This document shows, piece by piece, positions 26 to 6,277 of a stretch of DNA of 6,277 nt (the stretch's first letter is position 1; each line of letters starts with the position of its first letter). Source of the DNA: a virus. Taxonomy: Duplodnaviria; Heunggongvirae; Uroviricota; Caudoviricetes. A model generated the notes under the pieces. That model searched no databases, was not told the origin of the DNA, and was given only the letters and a program-made list of their open reading frames with translations. The position numbers and the translations under genes were made by a program. The DNA is taken from the IMG/VR virus record IMGVR_UViG_2713896736_000008; one strand, written 5' to 3'.

Positions 26-49
26 TGGTCATCAAATGACCAGTTTTTT
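25..49. terminator. Candidate bidirectional intrinsic terminator overlapping the int stop codon
   Basis: Perfect 8-bp stem CTGGTCAT (25-32) / ATGACCAG (36-43) with 3-nt loop CAA, preceded by AAAA (21-24) and followed by TTTTTT (44-49), so either strand's transcript has a hairpin plus U-tract. The int stop codon (32-34) lies inside the stem-loop. Confidence 0.5.
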
Positions 50-1162
50 CCATTCCTTACCGCGTGCGTCGTTGTAAATATCGGTCATTTTTTGATTCGA
101 ATGGCCTAGCAAAATTTTGGTATCAACCCCCTGCTCTCTGAACAATCGCTCTGATAAAGATCTCTGCTCATGGAAAGAGGGAGGGGTGCCATTAGCACGC
201 CAGTTGTAATCCACAGAATCCCGGGCTTTTTTAAATGCAACGGTTAATGTTGCTGGCTTAACCATCCCGCCGCGCTTAGCTGTCCCTTTCGCGTGATGGT
301 GGTGCAATAGCCACGGACTAAGAACGCAATCGCGGCAGGATGACACCACATCATCCAGGGTGAGATTTAATTTATCGCAACGCAGAGCCAGAGGGATGGC
401 AATCCGGGTTCCTGTTTTTTGCTGTTCGACATGAAGATAACCATCCCGGATATCCGAAAATTGCATTTTGCAAATATCTGAAAGGCGCTGGCCTGTCATC
501 AGTGCCAGCAGCATACCGCGCTGTAAAAAGTAACCATCCTTTTCCGCTGCGTTATAAATCATCATCCACTCATCAAAAGTCAGTCGCTGTCTTGATATCC
601 GCACCTGCGGTTTTTTTGCCGATTCTGCAGGGTTAAAGCCTGGCGGGACATCGCCCGTTTGCTGAGCTTCCCGGAAAACATCGATCAGTACTTTCCTGAA
701 AATTTGTCCCATTCTGTTATGTCCTCTGGCCTTGTACTCTTCCAGTACTGATACCACATCTTTTACGGTTATGGCATCTAACGGTCTGGTGCCAAAACGT
801 TCATCAAATACCCTGAGAGGGGCCGCTTTCTGTTTCAGCGTGTTGAGTTTGATCTCGCCGTTTTCATATCTTTCCTGTTGAATTTTTCTGTAATTATTCA
901 GAAAAATGGTAACGGTTGATGAACCGCCGGTATCACTAATAATTTTCTCCTGCAGACTGAGCATTTGTTCCATTTGCTGCCGGGCAAGACGGCTGTTCGC
1001 TTCTGCTGCAATAGTTTCTGCCAGTTTCTGGTCAATACTGCCGAGACCGTGATTTTTGCCTGTTATGGGATGCCTGTAACGCCAGTAAACTTTGTTATTT
1101 CTTTTGTCAAAATACGGAGATAATCCCGGAACATCGGTTTTATATTTTCGCGGGCGCGCCAT
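32..1162 (-). CDS. int: Lambda-family tyrosine integrase (site-specific recombinase), 376 aa
   Basis: Full-length ORF. Translation aligns by eye along its length with lambda Int (e.g. RQRLTFDEWMMIYNAAEKDGYFL...TGQRLSDICKMQFSDIRDGYLHVEQQKTGTRIAIPLAL vs lambda RSRLTADEYLKIYQAAESS...TGQRVGDLCEMKWSDIVDGYLYVEQSKTGVKIAIPTAL). Catalytic-type residues present: Arg in TGQR, His-x-x-Arg in FHEQRS, His in LLGHSNQ, and the C-terminal Tyr in MTDIYNDARG. Confidence 0.93.
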   Translation of the reverse strand: MARPRKYKTDVPGLSPYFDKRNNKVYWRYRHPITGKNHGLGSIDQKLAETIAAEANSRLARQQMEQMLSLQEKIISDTGGSSTVTIFLNNYRKIQQERYENGEIKLNTLKQKAAPLRVFDERFGTRPLDAITVKDVVSVLEEYKARGHNRMGQIFRKVLIDVFREAQQTGDVPPGFNPAESAKKPQVRISRQRLTFDEWMMIYNAAEKDGYFLQRGMLLALMTGQRLSDICKMQFSDIRDGYLHVEQQKTGTRIAIPLALRCDKLNLTLDDVVSSCRDCVLSPWLLHHHHAKGTAKRGGMVKPATLTVAFKKARDSVDYNWRANGTPPSFHEQRSLSERLFREQGVDTKILLGHSNQKMTDIYNDARGKEWKKLVI

Positions 1163-1452: not shown

Positions 1453-3073
1453 TTAAAAATCAGCCTGATTCGGGATCAGTTTTTGCCAGATAACTGAAAC
1501 GTATTTTGCCTGGTAACGGGCGTCATCAAGTGCATTATGGCGCTCACCTTCGAATGGAATAGCCGTTCTGGCATCGAAGTCTATGGCTTTCCCCAGCTCA
1601 ACGATTGTGCGTACATCGCGATCGTTGTAGTAACGCCACGGGCAGGGGATCCCCTGCCGTTCGTATGAACGGCGCAAAATCGTGTTGTCGAAGTTGGCTC
1701 CATTTCCCCAGACCTGAACAAAAAATTCACCGGAGTTTTCGTCGATAAATTCCCGCAATTGTAATAGTGCATCATCTAACGGGATTTCATCGGTCATAAT
1801 GGCAGATTGCGCTTCGCGTGATTGCTTAAGCCACCATTTAATGGTGTCCCGATCAATGACCCCGCCAGCAGTTTCCAGATCGATAGTCTTACTAAATTCC
1901 GGTCCCATATCTCCGGTTTGCGGATCGAAAAATATTGCACCTATTGAGATGATCGGGGCATCAGGATTTTTTCCCATGGTTTCAAGGTCGATCATTAGAT
2001 GGTCACACGTCCTGCTGGTGGATGTGATTTCTTGATGACCGTTCACCTTAATTGAGTGATCTGCCGTCTCGCCAGTTTCATTATCGCTATCGTGATGCTG
2101 ATTGCCGTCAGTGTTCTCCTTGTGTGGATGTTCAGCGCCTTCCATTTCCTCCGGATCATCTTCCTGAACTTCAACCTGATACTCTTCATCGAATGTTTCC
2201 TGGTATGTTGCGTCGCCCATCACCGCGCCACAATCAGGGCAGTTGCCGCCGCCGGTCTGACCGCAGGCGGTGCAGACTTTTTCCGGTTCCTGTTGCGCTA
2301 CTGGCTCAGGTTGTTTCGTTTCTGGCTCGTTTTGTTGCGTATTTGGGCTGTTTTGTTCCGCTTTCTGGTCGTTCTGTTCCGTTTCTTGCTGGTTCTGGTT
2401 CACAGAATCGCGGGTTTCAATCCCCTTCACCCATTTCGGATCATTCGGGTCGCTAATCCCTGCAACAAATTCACCACGTGATGCGGCGAGCAACTGATTG
2501 GCGTCAGGCTGGCTGATATTGGCTGCCTGCATAATTTTCTTTACTTCGTCAGCGGTAACTTTTACCGGTTCTGGTTGTTCAGAATTTTGTGCGGTATTTG
2601 CATTTTGCGGTAAGCCTGTGTATGTGCCATTTTTTCGGGCAAAATATTCTTCTTTTGTGATTTCAGTAGCCCCGGCAGCCAGCGCCTTATCCAGACCAGA
2701 AAGTTTGTTTGCGCGACCGTATTTTTCGCCATCCTTGTCGGTGAAGAGGAAGTAGAACGGCCCCTCACGTTCTACAGATGGTTCGACTTCCACTTTGCAT
2801 TCGGTTTTTTCGTTGTCTGGAATTGCCGTTTCCACTGCATCAGTTTCTGGTACTGGCGACGAGAGAGTATCAGTTGCGCTCTGATTTGTTCCTTCATCTT
2901 CAAACACGCCCTTTGTAGTCAGGTATTCAGTAATGTATTTGTTCAGTGCCACAGGGTCTTTGTGAATGTCGATCGGACGTTCACGGACAAGGCCAAAAAT
3001 AGTCTGGCGGTCGTAGCGAAGGGCATCAGGCTGTTTGCGCATTGATGCCGAGATACGCTTCCAGTCTTCGCGG
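1453..3073 (-). CDS. RecE-family (exodeoxyribonuclease VIII-like) protein with C-terminal DnaQ-like DEDDh 3'-5' exonuclease domain; partial, 5' end lies in the N-masked region (about 539 codons visible)
   Basis: Long minus-strand ORF ending at the stop at 1453-1455. The central part (QLLAASRGEFVAGISDPNDPKWVKGIETRDSVNQNQQETEQNDQKAEQNSP...CTACGQTGGGNCPDCGAVMGDATYQETFDEEYQVE...PEEMEGAEHPH) matches, by recollection, the non-catalytic middle of Rac RecE. The C-terminal ~185 aa (about nt 1456-2010) carry DEDDh motifs: MIDLET (Asp-x-Glu), WGNGANFDNTIL (Asp), HNALDDARYQAKY (His...Asp). The 21-aa N-terminal extension the ORF track adds at 3480-3543 is discarded because that stretch is in the coding frame of the upstream gene. 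Confidence 0.85.
2014..2021 (+). other. Second Chi octamer 5'-GCTGGTGG-3', inside the exonuclease coding region, same orientation as the first
   Basis: Exact match read directly from the sequence. Confidence 0.5.
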
Positions 3074-3479
3074 NNNNNNNNNNNNNNNNNNNNNNNNNNN
3101 NNNNNNNNNNNNNNNNNNNNNNNNNNNNNNNNNNNNNNNNNNNNNNNNNNNNNNNNNNNNNNNNNNNNNNNNNNNNNNNNNNNNNNNNNNNNNNNNNNNN
3201 NNNNNNNNNNNNNNNNNNNNNNNNNNNNNNNNNNNNNNNNNNNNNNNNNNNNNNNNNNNNNNNNNNNNNNNNNNNNNNNNNNNNNNNNNNNNNNNNNNNN
3301 NNNNNNNNNNNNNNNNNNNNNNNNNNNNNNNNNNNNNNNNNNNNNNNNNNNNNNNNNNNNNNNNNNNNNNNNNNNNNNNNNNNNNNNNNNNNNNNNNNNN
3401 NNNNNNNNNNNNNNNNNNNNNNNNNNNNNNNNNNNNNNNNNNNNNNNNNNNNNNNNNNNNNNNNNNNNNNNNNNNNNNN
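3074..3479. other. 406-nt run of N (masked or unresolved sequence)
   Basis: Read directly. It hides the 3' end of the ORF at 3480-4051 and the 5' end of the exonuclease ORF. Every X run in the six-frame track comes from this block. Confidence 1.
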
Positions 3480-4051: not shown

Positions 4052-4143
4052 TTTGTTTTACCTCATTACAGATTTAAGGGTGAACAAATCCCTGCCATTG
4101 CTGGCATATAAGAATGAAATCGGATGTTTATTACGGAACTGTT

Positions 4144-4335
4144 TTAAAGACCTGCCGGGATTTCGTTATTATCATGGTGAATAACTTTATCGACAGGGTA
4201 ACAGTTACCGGGAATTTTCTGTTCGGTTGCTGCAGTCACACACTCCTGCATTGTCCTGTGAACACTGACTGCAATATCAACTGGCTCTCCGGAAACAAGA
4301 AAAACTGTCAGAACAAGTGCAAATGCTGTATTCAT
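4144..4335 (-). CDS. ydfD: YdfD-like small membrane (lysis) protein, 63 aa
   Basis: ATG at 4335-4333 overlaps the dicB stop TGA (4334-4332) as ATGA, implying translational coupling. N-terminus MNTAFALVLTVFLVSG is a single hydrophobic helix. Size and position directly downstream of dicB match ydfD of the Qin prophage. AAGGA Shine-Dalgarno 8 nt upstream. The track's longer 81-aa form (start 4389) and an ATG at 4344 are alternative starts. Confidence 0.68.
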   Translation of the reverse strand: MNTAFALVLTVFLVSGEPVDIAVSVHRTMQECVTAATEQKIPGNCYPVDKVIHHDNNEIPAGL

Positions 4336-4520
4336 TGCCAGCATCCTTTTTGTATCGGACGTAAACGGGCCAGCATTGAAAGAATGCATATTTTATTTAA
4401 TAACTCCCGTTCGTGTTTTCTCTTGTTAATGGCATCTTCAGTAAATACAGGGTTACTGATAGTGACACCAATTTCAAAACAACCTTCAGACGTATTAACG
4501 TTTGGTAATAACGTTTCCAT
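4332..4520 (-). CDS. dicB: Cell-division inhibitor DicB homolog, 62 aa
   Basis: Translation METLLPNVNTSEGCFEIGVTISNPVFTEDAINKRKHERELLNKICILSMLARLRPIQKGCWQ is near-identical, by recollection, to E. coli K-12 Qin DicB (MKTLLPNVNTSEGCFEIGVTISNPVFTEDAINKRKQERELLNKICIVSMLARLRLMPKGCAQ). GAGGA Shine-Dalgarno 7 nt upstream of the ATG at 4520-4518. The track ORF 4332..4625 extends this frame upstream to a GTG. Confidence 0.88.
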   Translation of the reverse strand: METLLPNVNTSEGCFEIGVTISNPVFTEDAINKRKHERELLNKICILSMLARLRPIQKGCWQ

Positions 4521-4689
4521 TATCGCGTCCTCAACAATGAATTTTGTGATGCGGTGCCTGGTGCCTCCAGGTGACGTTAACCAGTTAACAATTAACGCCG
4601 GATACAGAGAATCCACCCATAACACTGTTTTTAGCTTTAACTGTTCCGCGTGCGCTCAGCCGCATTCACTGCATCACAAAATTCACTTT

Positions 4690-4745
4690 AAAAAGGGCGG
4701 ACATCAGTTCATGGGCAAACAGATGCCGCCAAACGTCACCAGAAA
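4690..4745 (-). ncRNA. dicF: DicF small RNA homolog (about 56 nt) ending in an intrinsic terminator
   Basis: Minus strand reads UUUCUGGUGACGUUUGGCGGCAUCUGUUUGCCCAUGAACUGAUGUCCGCCCUUUUU. The 5' part UUUCUGGUGACGUUUGGCGG matches DicF as recalled from K-12. The 3' part forms a 9-bp stem with one bulged A (GGCGG(A)CAUC at 4696-4705 paired with GAUGCCGCC at 4722-4730 on the + strand) followed by U5 (4690-4694). Location just upstream of dicB matches the dicF-dicB arrangement. Confidence 0.72.
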
Positions 4746-4746
4746 A

Positions 4747-5078
4747 TTGATAACAGAGGGCGTTGCAGCGGGGTTGTCACTTAAGCGTATGGTCAACCTG
4801 ACAACCCGGTGTCCTCAACGGGGAAGGAATAACCCCGCCATACTTACCGCTGCGCCATTTCGCGGAGTGCCACAACCGGAAGCGCACGGTCGACGAAAAT
4901 TTAACGACAGGCTATCTATGAACCAGCAACCTCGCCGTGCGCTTTCGCGTTATGCTCTGACTTTTCAGAGAAATATCCTTTCAGTAAACTGTCAGTGCCG
5001 GATGTTCACCCGTGTCCGGCGCACGCACTCCACTTCACCCGTGGAGAACTCCTTAATTACCAACCCTCAGGAGGGTGA
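4747..5078 (-). promoter_or_regulatory. GC-rich, ORF-poor, hairpin-dense segment upstream of dicF; candidate structured precursor/leader RNA or regulatory region
   Basis: No minus-strand ORF with a usable start; stops are dense in all three minus frames. Hairpins on the + strand numbering: 4771-4779/4799-4807 (9 bp), 4819-4823/4833-4837 (5 bp), 4876-4889/4935-4948 (13 bp with one G-U), 4995-5004/5013-5022 (10 bp with G-U pairs), 5028-5033/5041-5046 (6 bp). Short motifs repeat within it (see findings). Confidence 0.4.
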
Positions 5079-5312
5079 ATGTTAAAATCAACTCTTATTG
5101 CTAAATGCCTTTATCAAAATCGCATGGTAAGCAGCATTTCAATAGGCGAGTCTGCAGTTAAAAGTATTTTCGAAGAGTACTTTCCCGGGCATGATTTTAA
5201 TAAATGGAATACCAAATTACCGCCAGCAGTTTCAACGCGTATTCTGAAAGCAACCGAAAGAGCAAGTACAATTCGCGTTAACTATTTCATTAAAGATTTG
5301 TGGGATCTTTGA
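5079..5312 (+). CDS. Hypothetical small protein, 77 aa, on the strand opposite the surrounding operon
   Basis: ATG at 5079 preceded by a strong Shine-Dalgarno AGGAGG (5069-5074, 4-nt spacer). AT-rich codon usage contrasts sharply with the GC-rich sequence immediately upstream. Its 3' end overlaps the convergent 135-aa gene by 23 nt. No family recognised. Confidence 0.55.
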   Translation: MLKSTLIAKCLYQNRMVSSISIGESAVKSIFEEYFPGHDFNKWNTKLPPAVSTRILKATERASTIRVNYFIKDLWDL

Positions 5313-5697
5313 TATCCACAGAGCCTAAAGTATGTGCATATGGATGTGCTATTATGCGCCCTCGCAGATTTGCATCATTTTCTAAATTCACTGAACGAAA
5401 CAGGGCATCAACAAGGCTCTGTACAATGCAAAGGCAATCGAAGACTGTCGCCGTTTCTGTTTTGATTGATGAAAGAACATGGCCATTCACGCAAACAGAA
5501 ATTACCCGTTTATTAACATCGCTTTCCTGCTTTTGATTATCAGAACCATATAGCCCAGAAAAAGCATTGCGCACATTACGAACCATATTATCGATGGTTT
5601 CTTTTTCTGCGGTACTAAGGTCAAGAGTAGCCAGTTGTGAACGAACTATATTCGATGCCATTTCCTGTAATGGCGTTGGTAAATCTTTAAATTCCAT
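5290..5697 (-). CDS. Hypothetical protein, 135 aa
   Basis: ATG at 5697-5695 with GAGG Shine-Dalgarno about 7 nt upstream, only 22 nt downstream of the 72-aa gene stop (operon-like). No helix-turn-helix or other motif recognised. Confidence 0.65.
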   Translation of the reverse strand: MEFKDLPTPLQEMASNIVRSQLATLDLSTAEKETIDNMVRNVRNAFSGLYGSDNQKQESDVNKRVISVCVNGHVLSSIKTETATVFDCLCIVQSLVDALFRSVNLENDANLRGRIIAHPYAHTLGSVDIKDPTNL

Positions 5698-5719
5698 TAT
5701 TAGCCTCGTTGGTTAGCTA

Positions 5720-5938
5720 TTAACGTGGGTATGTAATCATTCTGGCAATGCTTAATGCCGCTGCTTTTTCCAGATTGGTGATATCCTGCTCCAGAGCGGA
5801 CAGATTTTCAGCCTGCTTAGCCCTGGCTTCATTGGCCCATTTCAGGTCCTGCACCGCCTTAATTTTCTGGTGCATCCACTCATAAAGTTCATCATCGGTA
5901 TAGTCTGGCGCGATGATGACGGGGTCTCGTTTCTGCAT
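5720..5938 (-). CDS. Hypothetical small protein, 72 aa, predicted helical/coiled-coil
   Basis: ATG at 5938-5936 with a strong Shine-Dalgarno AAGGAG 4 nt upstream. First gene of the leftward gene string in this window. Occupies the position of the small ydfA/B/C-type ORFs of Qin, but its sequence is not confidently recognised. Confidence 0.7.
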   Translation of the reverse strand: MQKRDPVIIAPDYTDDELYEWMHQKIKAVQDLKWANEARAKQAENLSALEQDITNLEKAAALSIARMITYPR

Positions 5939-5970
5939 GTCGGCTCCTTGTGGTTAGCGTTGCCTGCTTT

Positions 5971-5998
5971 TTAACCACGTCAGGCGAGGTGGTATCCT
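5971..5998 (+). promoter_or_regulatory. Candidate sigma70 promoter for the zinc-ribbon gene in the divergent intergenic region
   Basis: TTAACC (5971-5976), 16-nt spacer, TATCCT (5993-5998), about 35 nt upstream of the ATG at 6032. Hexamers are weak (4/6 each); by eye only. Confidence 0.3.
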
Positions 5999-6031
5999 CT
6001 GAGGGGTCTGTTACTCGAGAGGAAATTGGTT

Positions 6032-6232
6032 ATGAATACAATCAAGTTTTCTTGCCCAGAATGTGGTGGCGAAGTCTTTGACACATCCTTTAAGCCGCAG
6101 GGCTCTGACAGTTTCGCGGGAGCCATCTGCAAAAATTGTGGTCACCTTGTAACTGAAGATGAGTCCTCGCAGTTCGATGACGAAATCGTTGACAATATCT
6201 TCGGTGCACTCACCAGAGACTTTCTGAAGTAA
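6032..6232 (+). CDS. Small zinc-ribbon protein with acidic C-terminal tail, 66 aa
   Basis: ATG at 6032 with GAGAGG Shine-Dalgarno 9 nt upstream (the track begins at an in-frame TTG at 6026). Two CxxC pairs (CPEC and CKNC, 22 residues apart) followed by an acidic tail EDESSQFDDEIVDNIF. Divergently transcribed from the 72-aa gene. Confidence 0.65.
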   Translation: MNTIKFSCPECGGEVFDTSFKPQGSDSFAGAICKNCGHLVTEDESSQFDDEIVDNIFGALTRDFLK

Positions 6233-6277
6233 AGGCGCATACCGCTTAGTTACCGCTCTGATAACTCTTACCTGCCC

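Follow-up and report, generated by a model that had tools for sequence, protein, structure and literature searches.

A conserved convergent gene cassette between ydfC and the dicF spacer of lambdoid prophages: a possible antagonist pair

The DNA analyzed here (the window) is a stretch of 6,277 nucleotides (nt) from a Caudoviricetes virus, IMG/VR record IMGVR_UViG_2713896736_000008. It is the left arm of a lambdoid prophage integrated beside ompW, and it is identical to the "PPompW" prophages of Shiga toxin-producing Escherichia coli (STEC). Near its right end, two minus-strand open reading frames (ORFs) of 72 and 135 amino acids (aa) precede dicF and dicB. The 72-aa ORF is the named gene ydfC. 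The 135-aa ORF belongs to the early-left (dicB) operon of the PPompW-type prophage, and in its product an N-terminal module (N) is fused to a second module (M). Together with an antisense gene of 77 aa, it makes up a discrete convergent cassette that separates ydfC from the dicF spacer and takes the slot and orientation of sieB in the Rac prophage. Across Enterobacterales, the M/77-aa pair and its 23-nt overlap are conserved, with both genes under purifying selection. The two products are tentatively read as a cognate antagonist pair split across the switch between lysogeny and lysis. There appears to be no earlier description of such a conserved, antisense-paired cassette that sits in a sieB-like slot and shares a leader element.

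Boundaries of the cassette and its empty site in K-12

The features of the cassette and of the adjoining ydfC gene are as follows.

5066-5699, both strands: 634-bp cassette absent from the K-12 Qin prophage (blastn against K-12)
5290-5697, minus strand: 135-aa early-left gene encoding a two-module protein (ORF; phrog_1363)
5533-5697, minus strand: N module, residues 1-55 (MEFKDLP...GLY), predicted two-helix hairpin
5293-5520, minus strand: M module, residues ~60-135, homologous to stand-alone 77-80-aa proteins
5079-5312, plus strand: 77-aa gene (phrog_10348), basic product with a predicted five-helix fold, convergent partner of the M module
5290-5312, both strands: 23-nt tail-to-tail overlap of the 135-aa and 77-aa genes (ORF coordinates)
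5720-5938, minus strand: ydfC orthologue, 72 aa (K-12 identity, RefSeq, phrog_1744)

As shown by blastn, homology to K-12 ends 20 nt past the ydfC stop codon and picks up again at window position 5065, with the break at position 4062/4063 of the K-12 locus. Because homology stops and resumes at an exact site, positions 5066-5699 were defined as a 634-bp insert relative to K-12. The insert contains the 135-aa gene and the opposite-strand 77-aa gene; its left edge lies two bases ahead of the 135-aa ATG, and its right edge falls at the ribosome-binding site (RBS) of the 77-aa gene. No counterpart of the 135-aa gene was found in K-12, as a preliminary description of this region, made from the sequence alone, had proposed. 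The same description took the 72-aa and 135-aa ORFs as the unit, and its gene list omitted the opposite-strand gene at 5079-5312; ydfC is kept alone in K-12 Qin, and the unit that is gained or lost consists of the 135-aa and 77-aa genes.

The insert was detected in 658 of 5426 complete E. coli genomes (~12%). Most copies share at least 99% identity and belong to STEC lineages, and the lineages that bear it are mainly O157:H7, O145:H28, O55:H7 and O111. It is also present in the isolated phage Evi. Some part of 5100-6277 was matched in ~3849 genomes, as against the 658 with the insert.

Modular structure of the 135-aa protein

The 135-aa gene has a Shine-Dalgarno sequence (GAGG, 6 nt ahead of the ATG) and is annotated in RefSeq as a "hypothetical protein" (WP_000394552.1). 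Its product is acidic (isoelectric point, pI, 5.3) and matches phrog_1363 over residues 1-130 of 135 (E=4.8e-47). Nearly all of its 224 homologues are from Escherichia, and 1.84 billion representative proteins, searched with a profile, yielded no more than 54 clusters, all of them fragments or module relatives and none annotated. Since these clusters divide the protein into such parts, it was described in terms of the modules N, M and C.

The N module forms two helices (residues 8-23 and 32-47) in the AlphaFold2 model, with a predicted local distance difference test score (pLDDT) of ~75 declining to ~57. Its first ~50 residues are alike in proteins of 106-212 aa with unrelated C-termini (forward proteins of 106, 124, 129, 133, 135, 201 and 208-212 aa), and the module was also recognized in phrog_6937, phrog_2151 and phrog_9419. 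The M module was modeled by AlphaFold2, at low confidence, as a beta-hairpin and two helices followed by a conserved low-confidence tail, and its ratio of nonsynonymous to synonymous substitution rates (dN/dS) of 0.17-0.43 indicates purifying selection. The 201-aa form carries an extra C module (residues ~141-201); it diverges from the 135-aa form from residue ~129 onward, which is where the antisense 77-aa gene ends. The allele in the window is recombinant, with the N type of the 124-, 133- and 208-aa forms and the M type of phage Evi. In MAFFT alignments that included N-only fragments, the M fragments were put out of register.

No helix-turn-helix (HTH) or other Pfam/NCBIfam domain was found in the 135-aa protein (no HTH family at E<=1). 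The possibility that it is DicA or another repressor of the Cro-CI type was rejected, given that it has no HTH and the real repressor gene lies beyond the window; the preliminary description had been right that the protein lacks an HTH and is not DicA. No arginine-rich N-terminal motif of the lambda N type was seen in the 135-aa protein or the stand-alone M proteins when the sequences were read by eye, with no profile.

Proteins of 147 aa with the N module (~37% identity) also occur in ~60 Shiga toxin (Stx)-converting phages of the 933W type, for example PA2 gp25 (locus L003, 5001-5444). Their genes lie deep in the early-left operon, between DUF2303 and PAPS-reductase genes, and no opposite-strand gene is annotated alongside.

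The convergent 77-aa gene

The 77-aa gene is preceded by a strong AGGAGG site 4 nt ahead of its ATG, and the protein matches phrog_10348 over its full length. There were 33 homologue clusters, most of them of exactly 77 aa and 53-96% identical, from ~12 enteric genera, with Escherichia, Klebsiella/Raoultella, Salmonella, Serratia, Yersinia, Dickeya, Xenorhabdus and Morganella among the sources; a genome scan extended the homologues to Proteus and Photorhabdus. With a dN/dS of 0.08-0.33, the gene is under purifying selection. The AlphaFold2 model, built from 30 sequences, is a compact five-helix structure (pLDDT 96.8, predicted template modeling score 0.86), for which no structural relative was found, Foldseek against viral models returning the protein's own family only. 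The protein is basic (pI 9.5, as against 5.3 for the 135-aa protein). It was judged to have no transmembrane (TM) segment because its maximum 19-residue hydropathy is 0.59.

In Pfam, NCBIfam and PADLOC, no significant match was obtained for the 72-, 135- or 77-aa proteins or for the proteins of the alternative cassettes, save a weak SLATT similarity described below, and nothing was found by PDB sequence and profile searches. The matched PHROG families 1363, 10348 and 1744 are sequence clusters only, all labeled "unknown function". Neither protein of the preliminary description was placed in a characterized family by homology searches. The genes may serve host takeover, exclusion or anti-defense, as that description had suggested for the region, but none of the databases yielded a functional match. 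That both ORFs are genuine, with good translation signals and a 22-nt spacer on the minus strand, was corroborated by full-length PHROG matches, RefSeq annotation and purifying selection.

Conservation of the M/77-aa pair across genera

In every locus with readable surroundings, the 77-aa gene lies tail-to-tail with an M-module gene. These loci are the window, phage Evi, locus L014, and loci of Serratia (L025-27), Dickeya (L028), Klebsiella (L029-30), Proteus (L032) and Photorhabdus (L034). The two genes overlap by 23 nt in the window and in Evi, Serratia, Dickeya and Klebsiella, and by 26 nt in L014. Identities between loci drop to 37% (M) and 55% (77-aa protein). In these other genera, M is a separate gene of ~78 aa in lambdoid prophages. 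Often, as in Serratia, Klebsiella and Dickeya, it comes first among the early-left genes past a CI-type repressor, and in these three genera it occurs without ydfC. A second combination of this kind was also observed, the C module being found together with an antisense gene of the 63-aa type in three taxa (E. coli and two others).

The 72-aa ORF is ydfC

The 72-aa ORF had been described as sitting where K-12 Qin has ydfA, ydfB and ydfC. The place is right, but the ORF is ydfC itself: 68 of its 72 residues are identical to K-12 YdfC (b1573), and the DNA of window 5700-5938 is 95% identical by blastn. It is annotated in RefSeq as "protein YdfC" (WP_001171903.1) and matches phrog_1744 over its full length (E=9e-39). 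The gene has a Shine-Dalgarno sequence (AAGGAG, 5 nt ahead of the ATG), its dN/dS of 0.16-0.66 among homologues indicates purifying selection, and the product is acidic (pI 5.3) and without a TM segment. YdfC of the cryptic prophage Qin has the same length and the same place upstream of dicF and dicB; Qin carries ydfA and ydfB, whereas the window has an antisense Zn-ribbon gene instead. In the literature, YdfC is a small dicBF-operon protein of unknown function (PMC5069750), and in a 2026 preprint it is a cryptic prophage peptide whose function is not known (bioRxiv 10.1101/2025.03.22.644768). No native function was given in the papers that mention ydfC.

In the preliminary description, ydfC and the 135-aa gene were a functional co-transcribed unit, to which the antisense ORF would be incidental. 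The two genes do look co-transcribed, given that they are co-oriented, each with an RBS, that the spacer between the ydfC stop codon (ending at 5720) and the 135-aa ATG (5697) is 22 nt, and that no terminator-like site was found between them on their strand. A functional link between ydfC and its downstream gene also receives indirect support from sequence comparison. A YdfC-like domain forms the N-terminus, and a C module the C-terminus, of two proteins from other taxa, P0150 (E=1e-8) and P0160 (E=9e-13), at loci L021 and L023. In Proteus (L032), a YdfC-like gene (2980-3207, minus strand; E=4e-10) is followed by an M-domain gene and then by the antisense 77-aa gene. Based on these fusions and on the Proteus gene order, YdfC and the N module were taken to alternate as the N-terminal partner of modules M and C, and ydfC was assigned to the same shuffled set of modules. 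Nevertheless, the pair is not an evolutionary unit. The gene content of dicB-carrying prophages, which the earlier description had singled out for comparison, separates the two genes: ydfC stands without the 135-aa gene in K-12 Qin and in most dicB prophages (~3849 genomes with a match to some part of 5100-6277, against 658 with the insert). Genes with the N module occur without ydfC at L011-L013 and L018, the M genes of Serratia, Klebsiella and Dickeya likewise lack it, and the antisense ORF is a conserved gene under selection. A functional unit of ydfC and the 135-aa gene is therefore considered improbable.

A slot for alternative convergent cassettes

Other cassettes with an N-module forward gene were found at the same place.

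Forward 201 aa, antisense 63 aa: shared RBS
Forward 208 aa, antisense 69 aa: own RBS
Forward 133 aa, antisense 76/64 aa: shared RBS precedes a 27-aa ORF, with the called gene beyond
Forward 124 aa, antisense 73 aa: shared RBS
Forward 106 aa, antisense 91 aa: shared RBS

The antisense genes of the 135-, 201-, 124- and 106-aa cassettes begin from the common RBS context CTCAGGAGGGTGAA(A)ATG. The K-12 junction is identical in most of the alternative cassettes, and K-12 homology resumes ~40 nt further on at the 208-aa (L008) and 129-aa (L019) loci. The antisense proteins of different cassettes are mutually unrelated, and the four that were tested (63, 69, 64 and 73 aa) each fall into a PHROG of their own, of unknown function. 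Because the junctions are shared and the antisense genes differ, K-12 Qin was interpreted as the empty site of a slot for interchangeable convergent two-gene cassettes. Strict one-to-one covariation of the forward C-terminus and the antisense gene was also considered, and it was contradicted by the 124-aa type.

At L056 (2954-3400, minus strand) and at five similar IMG/VR loci, the 124-aa N-module gene is followed by a gene for an antisense protein of 148 aa, with a long hydrophobic stretch resembling two TM segments. This protein gave a weak match to a SLATT effector, a type of defense effector (PADLOC PDLC03794, E=0.002), which suggests that the slot can carry defense-type effectors.

A comparable arrangement is present in the Rac prophage, where the early-left order is racR, ydaG, ydaF (DUF1391, like ydfA), antisense sieB, the small RNA (sRNA) kilS and the division inhibitor kilR, with ydaF and sieB tail-to-tail and overlapping by 4 nt. 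Because the gene orders of Rac and the window correspond, the antisense 77-aa gene was placed in the slot and orientation of sieB. SieB is the product of an exclusion gene that is expressed in the lysogen. In P22, self-immunity is provided by Esc, which is an internal product of sieB itself and not of a separate convergent gene. Only the genomic slot is shared between sieB (of Rac, lambda and P22) and the 77-aa gene, whose product is soluble and half the size. The 77-aa protein was rejected as a SieB homologue because it has no PF14163 match and no TM segment.

A conserved leader element of the antisense genes

Two upstream regions of antisense genes were compared.

5960-6031, plus strand: conserved promoter-like/leader element of ~70 nt, directly upstream of the ydfC start and ahead of the Zn-ribbon gene
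4995-5078, plus strand: leader upstream of the 77-aa gene, common to the K-12 ydfC-dicF spacer

The core of the first element is ACCAC-N10-GTGGTATCCT at 5974-5995 on the plus strand (0.00 occurrences expected by chance). Across loci it reads ACCAC-N9-11-GTGGTAT(C/T)(C/T)T and ends 33-38 nt before the ATG. The same element precedes the 77-aa genes of Serratia (L025-27), Klebsiella (L029-30) and L014; with a degenerate 5' arm it precedes those of Proteus (L032) and Photorhabdus (L034), and it was also observed ahead of 63-aa-type genes in L021 and L023 and ahead of a membrane-protein ORF in L023, a locus with two copies. The antisense genes that it precedes are thus of unrelated sequence. The element reads as an extended -10 promoter (TGgTATCTT) flanked by a pair of inverted repeats. 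Compensatory changes maintain the second of these (TCTTGG/CCAAGA), which reads CCTTGC/GCAAGG in L014 and CCTCT/AGAGG in the window. RNAalifold recovered only the invariant ACCAC/GTGGT stem, with no covariation, and no Rfam family was found in the cassette or in the conserved leader element. In the leader of the window's own 77-aa gene, a direct repeat, TTCACCCGTG, is present at 5005-5014 and 5034-5043. The K-12 empty site retains the region corresponding to 4995-5078, where it is aimed antisense into ydfC.

The palindromes that flank the promoter-like element could be seen as a sign of regulation. The 77-aa protein might then bind DNA or RNA and tune the lysis-lysogeny switch or dicF/dicB, with the M-module protein as an anti-regulator or an early regulator. 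Such a role would suit the basic, all-helical character of the 77-aa protein, the location of the cassette directly upstream of the dicF precursor region, and the position of M as the first early-left gene past the CI-type repressor in Serratia, Klebsiella and Dickeya. It was nonetheless regarded as improbable, given that K-12 Qin and many other prophages regulate dicBF without the cassette and that the M module, as read from its sequence, lacks the arginine-rich motif of N-type proteins.

A possible antagonist pair at the lysogeny/lysis switch

An antagonist pair is regarded as the most likely mechanism, at less than even odds. If the two products are antagonists, a putative promoter of its own would supply the basic 77-aa protein while the early-left operon is repressed, and the protein is proposed to be an effector of exclusion or abortive infection, or a toxin. 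The acidic M-module protein would appear only once the early-left promoter is active, upon induction or infection, and would neutralize the 77-aa protein; the switch would be reinforced by convergent transcription across the overlap. The polarity might also be the reverse, with an early effector and an immunity protein that is made constitutively. YdfC and the N module, which replace one another as N-terminal partner, may for that reason be further modules of the same family of early proteins. The evidence taken to point to an antagonist pair comprises the exact boundaries of the cassette, the alternative cassettes, the constant adjacency of M and the 77-aa gene, the C/63-aa pair and the purifying selection on the genes, as well as the sieB slot in Rac, the shared promoter-like element, the SLATT-like gene and the opposite charge of the two proteins.

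Several observations weigh against such a pair. No defense, anti-defense or toxin-antitoxin family was matched in PADLOC, Pfam or NCBIfam, and the AlphaFold2 model of the whole 135-aa protein is poor (pLDDT 55.7). A scan upstream of the window's 77-aa gene gave no convincing sigma-70 consensus promoter, and region 4995-5078 looks like a diverged copy of the conserved element in which the -10-like hexamer has been lost. The linkage of the two genes is weaker evidence than it appears, because physical overlap alone enforces co-inheritance. Moreover, the 201-aa form has M but no 77-aa gene, and the 124/106-aa forward type is accompanied by three different antisense genes and, in about half of the loci, by none.

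These last two observations also bear on a different explanation, according to which the genes are functionally independent: the 135-aa protein would be an early-lytic accessory factor for host takeover or anti-defense, with a host target, the 77-aa gene an unrelated moron inserted at its 3' end, the overlap a result of compaction, and the conserved linkage a consequence of the overlap. The convergent slot takes many unrelated genes; it is occupied in Rac by an independent moron, sieB, and the N-module genes of the Stx phages (PA2 gp25) have no annotated convergent partner. Set against this is the fact that M adjoins the 77-aa gene in every readable locus, across about eight genera and at 37-55% protein identity, in phages that are otherwise mosaic. 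The C module and the 63-aa gene are likewise linked, and the length of the M/77-aa overlap is held at 23 nt. Functional independence is regarded as the main rival, only slightly less likely than an antagonist pair.

For the antagonist pair, the known systems that come closest were compared. A type II toxin-antitoxin module was rejected: the genes are convergent with a 23-nt 3' overlap, not co-directional, and no toxin or antitoxin domain was found. Operons of pore-forming colicins have a convergent, constitutively expressed immunity gene. A partial likeness to colicin and polymorphic toxin-immunity loci lies in an N-terminal part that is conserved, a C-terminal part that varies, and a linked, variable downstream gene on the opposite strand. 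Unlike in those loci, the present proteins are small, cytoplasmic and devoid of domains for secretion, receptor binding or toxicity, most of the convergent proteins are not membrane proteins, and the pairing is not strictly one-to-one. In the Tha/Ith system of Staphylococcus aureus prophages, a prophage defense protein has a cognate inhibitor, the product of a small gene that overlaps on the antisense strand; specificity is cognate, control is exerted by antisense transcription, and the switch is tied to repressor-controlled transcription (PMC11087260). The window resembles it in having an opposite-strand prophage pair, an overlap at the lysogeny/lysis boundary and alternative variant pairs. 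The arrangement is mirrored, the antisense gene lying here inside the lytic early operon and there inside the cI operon. Tha is a HEPN RNase, whereas the 77-aa and 135-aa proteins gave no HEPN or PADLOC match, the 77-aa protein gave no fold match, and the proteins of the window have no sequence or domain relationship to Tha or Ith. In the present pair, one product would likewise antagonize the other.

An extended version of the antagonist reading would be a combinatorial system, new to the literature, in lambdoid prophages of Enterobacterales. In it, antisense effectors (the 77-, 63-, 91- and 73-aa proteins, the Zn-ribbon protein and the two-TM SLATT-like protein) would be expressed in the lysogen via the shared element, and matching antidote modules (M, C and perhaps N and YdfC) would be shuffled in the early-left operon and fused into proteins of one to three modules. 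As a whole this scheme is unlikely. Were it true, the antidotes would protect the prophage's own induction and permit the invasion of lysogens with a matching effector, the 135-aa protein would be a two-module antidote, and ydfC a further module.

If the cassette does encode an effector and its antidote, it would constitute a new prophage exclusion/anti-exclusion system with a bearing on superinfection, including that by Stx phages, and the 77-aa protein would add a new small-protein fold. Otherwise, annotation would still gain from the exact limits of the cassette, from a conserved antisense gene that had been overlooked and from the conserved leader element. The genes ydfA, ydfB and ydfC have been unexplained since the dicBF operon was described, and ydfC and its neighbor can now be placed in a modular family tied to antisense genes.

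Neighboring genes in the window

The remaining features of the window are listed below.

32-1162, minus strand: integrase, with the excisionase next in the minus-strand gene order
Minus strand, after the excisionase: large 3'-5' exonuclease gene with a masked run of N inside it
Minus strand, between the exonuclease gene and dicB: DUF1482/ydfD-like gene
4332-4520, minus strand: dicB (PF05358, E=6e-37; RefSeq annotation)
4695-4744, minus strand: DicF-like sRNA (Rfam RF00039, 43.5 bits, E=1e-7; gathering score 48)
6032-6232, plus strand: antisense Zn-ribbon gene of the ECs_2282 family (NF047912, E=1e-15; RefSeq annotation)

The masked run within the 3'-5' exonuclease gene comprises 406 N (3074-3479), and the listed ORFs that span it are artifacts of this mask. 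At the right, the minus-strand order is dicB, DicF-like RNA, 135-aa ORF and 72-aa ORF, so the dicF/dicB string that had been proposed downstream of the two ORFs was recovered. The DicF-like sequence falls inside a block that is 95% identical to K-12 by blastn; a default Rfam scan misses this copy because its 43.5 bits are below the gathering score. Just past the right end of the window lie the repressor, cro and a good candidate for the early-left promoter (TTGACC-18-TAAATT).

The frame of dicB is open upstream to a GTG (4332-4625, minus strand; 97 aa), and PF05358 covers residues 36-97 of this extended frame; the annotated start, which gives 62 aa, is the conserved one. In the dicF-dicB spacer (4501-4706, minus strand), a sub-threshold match to the Rfam family STnc100 was obtained (33.5 bits against 47, E=5e-5). 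The Zn-ribbon gene occupies the place of K-12 ydfA/ydfB and is the second antisense gene in the early-left operon. Its product showed a weak, sub-threshold similarity to restriction-alleviation proteins of the Lar type (TIGR03655, E=0.015; phrog_6422, E=0.008).

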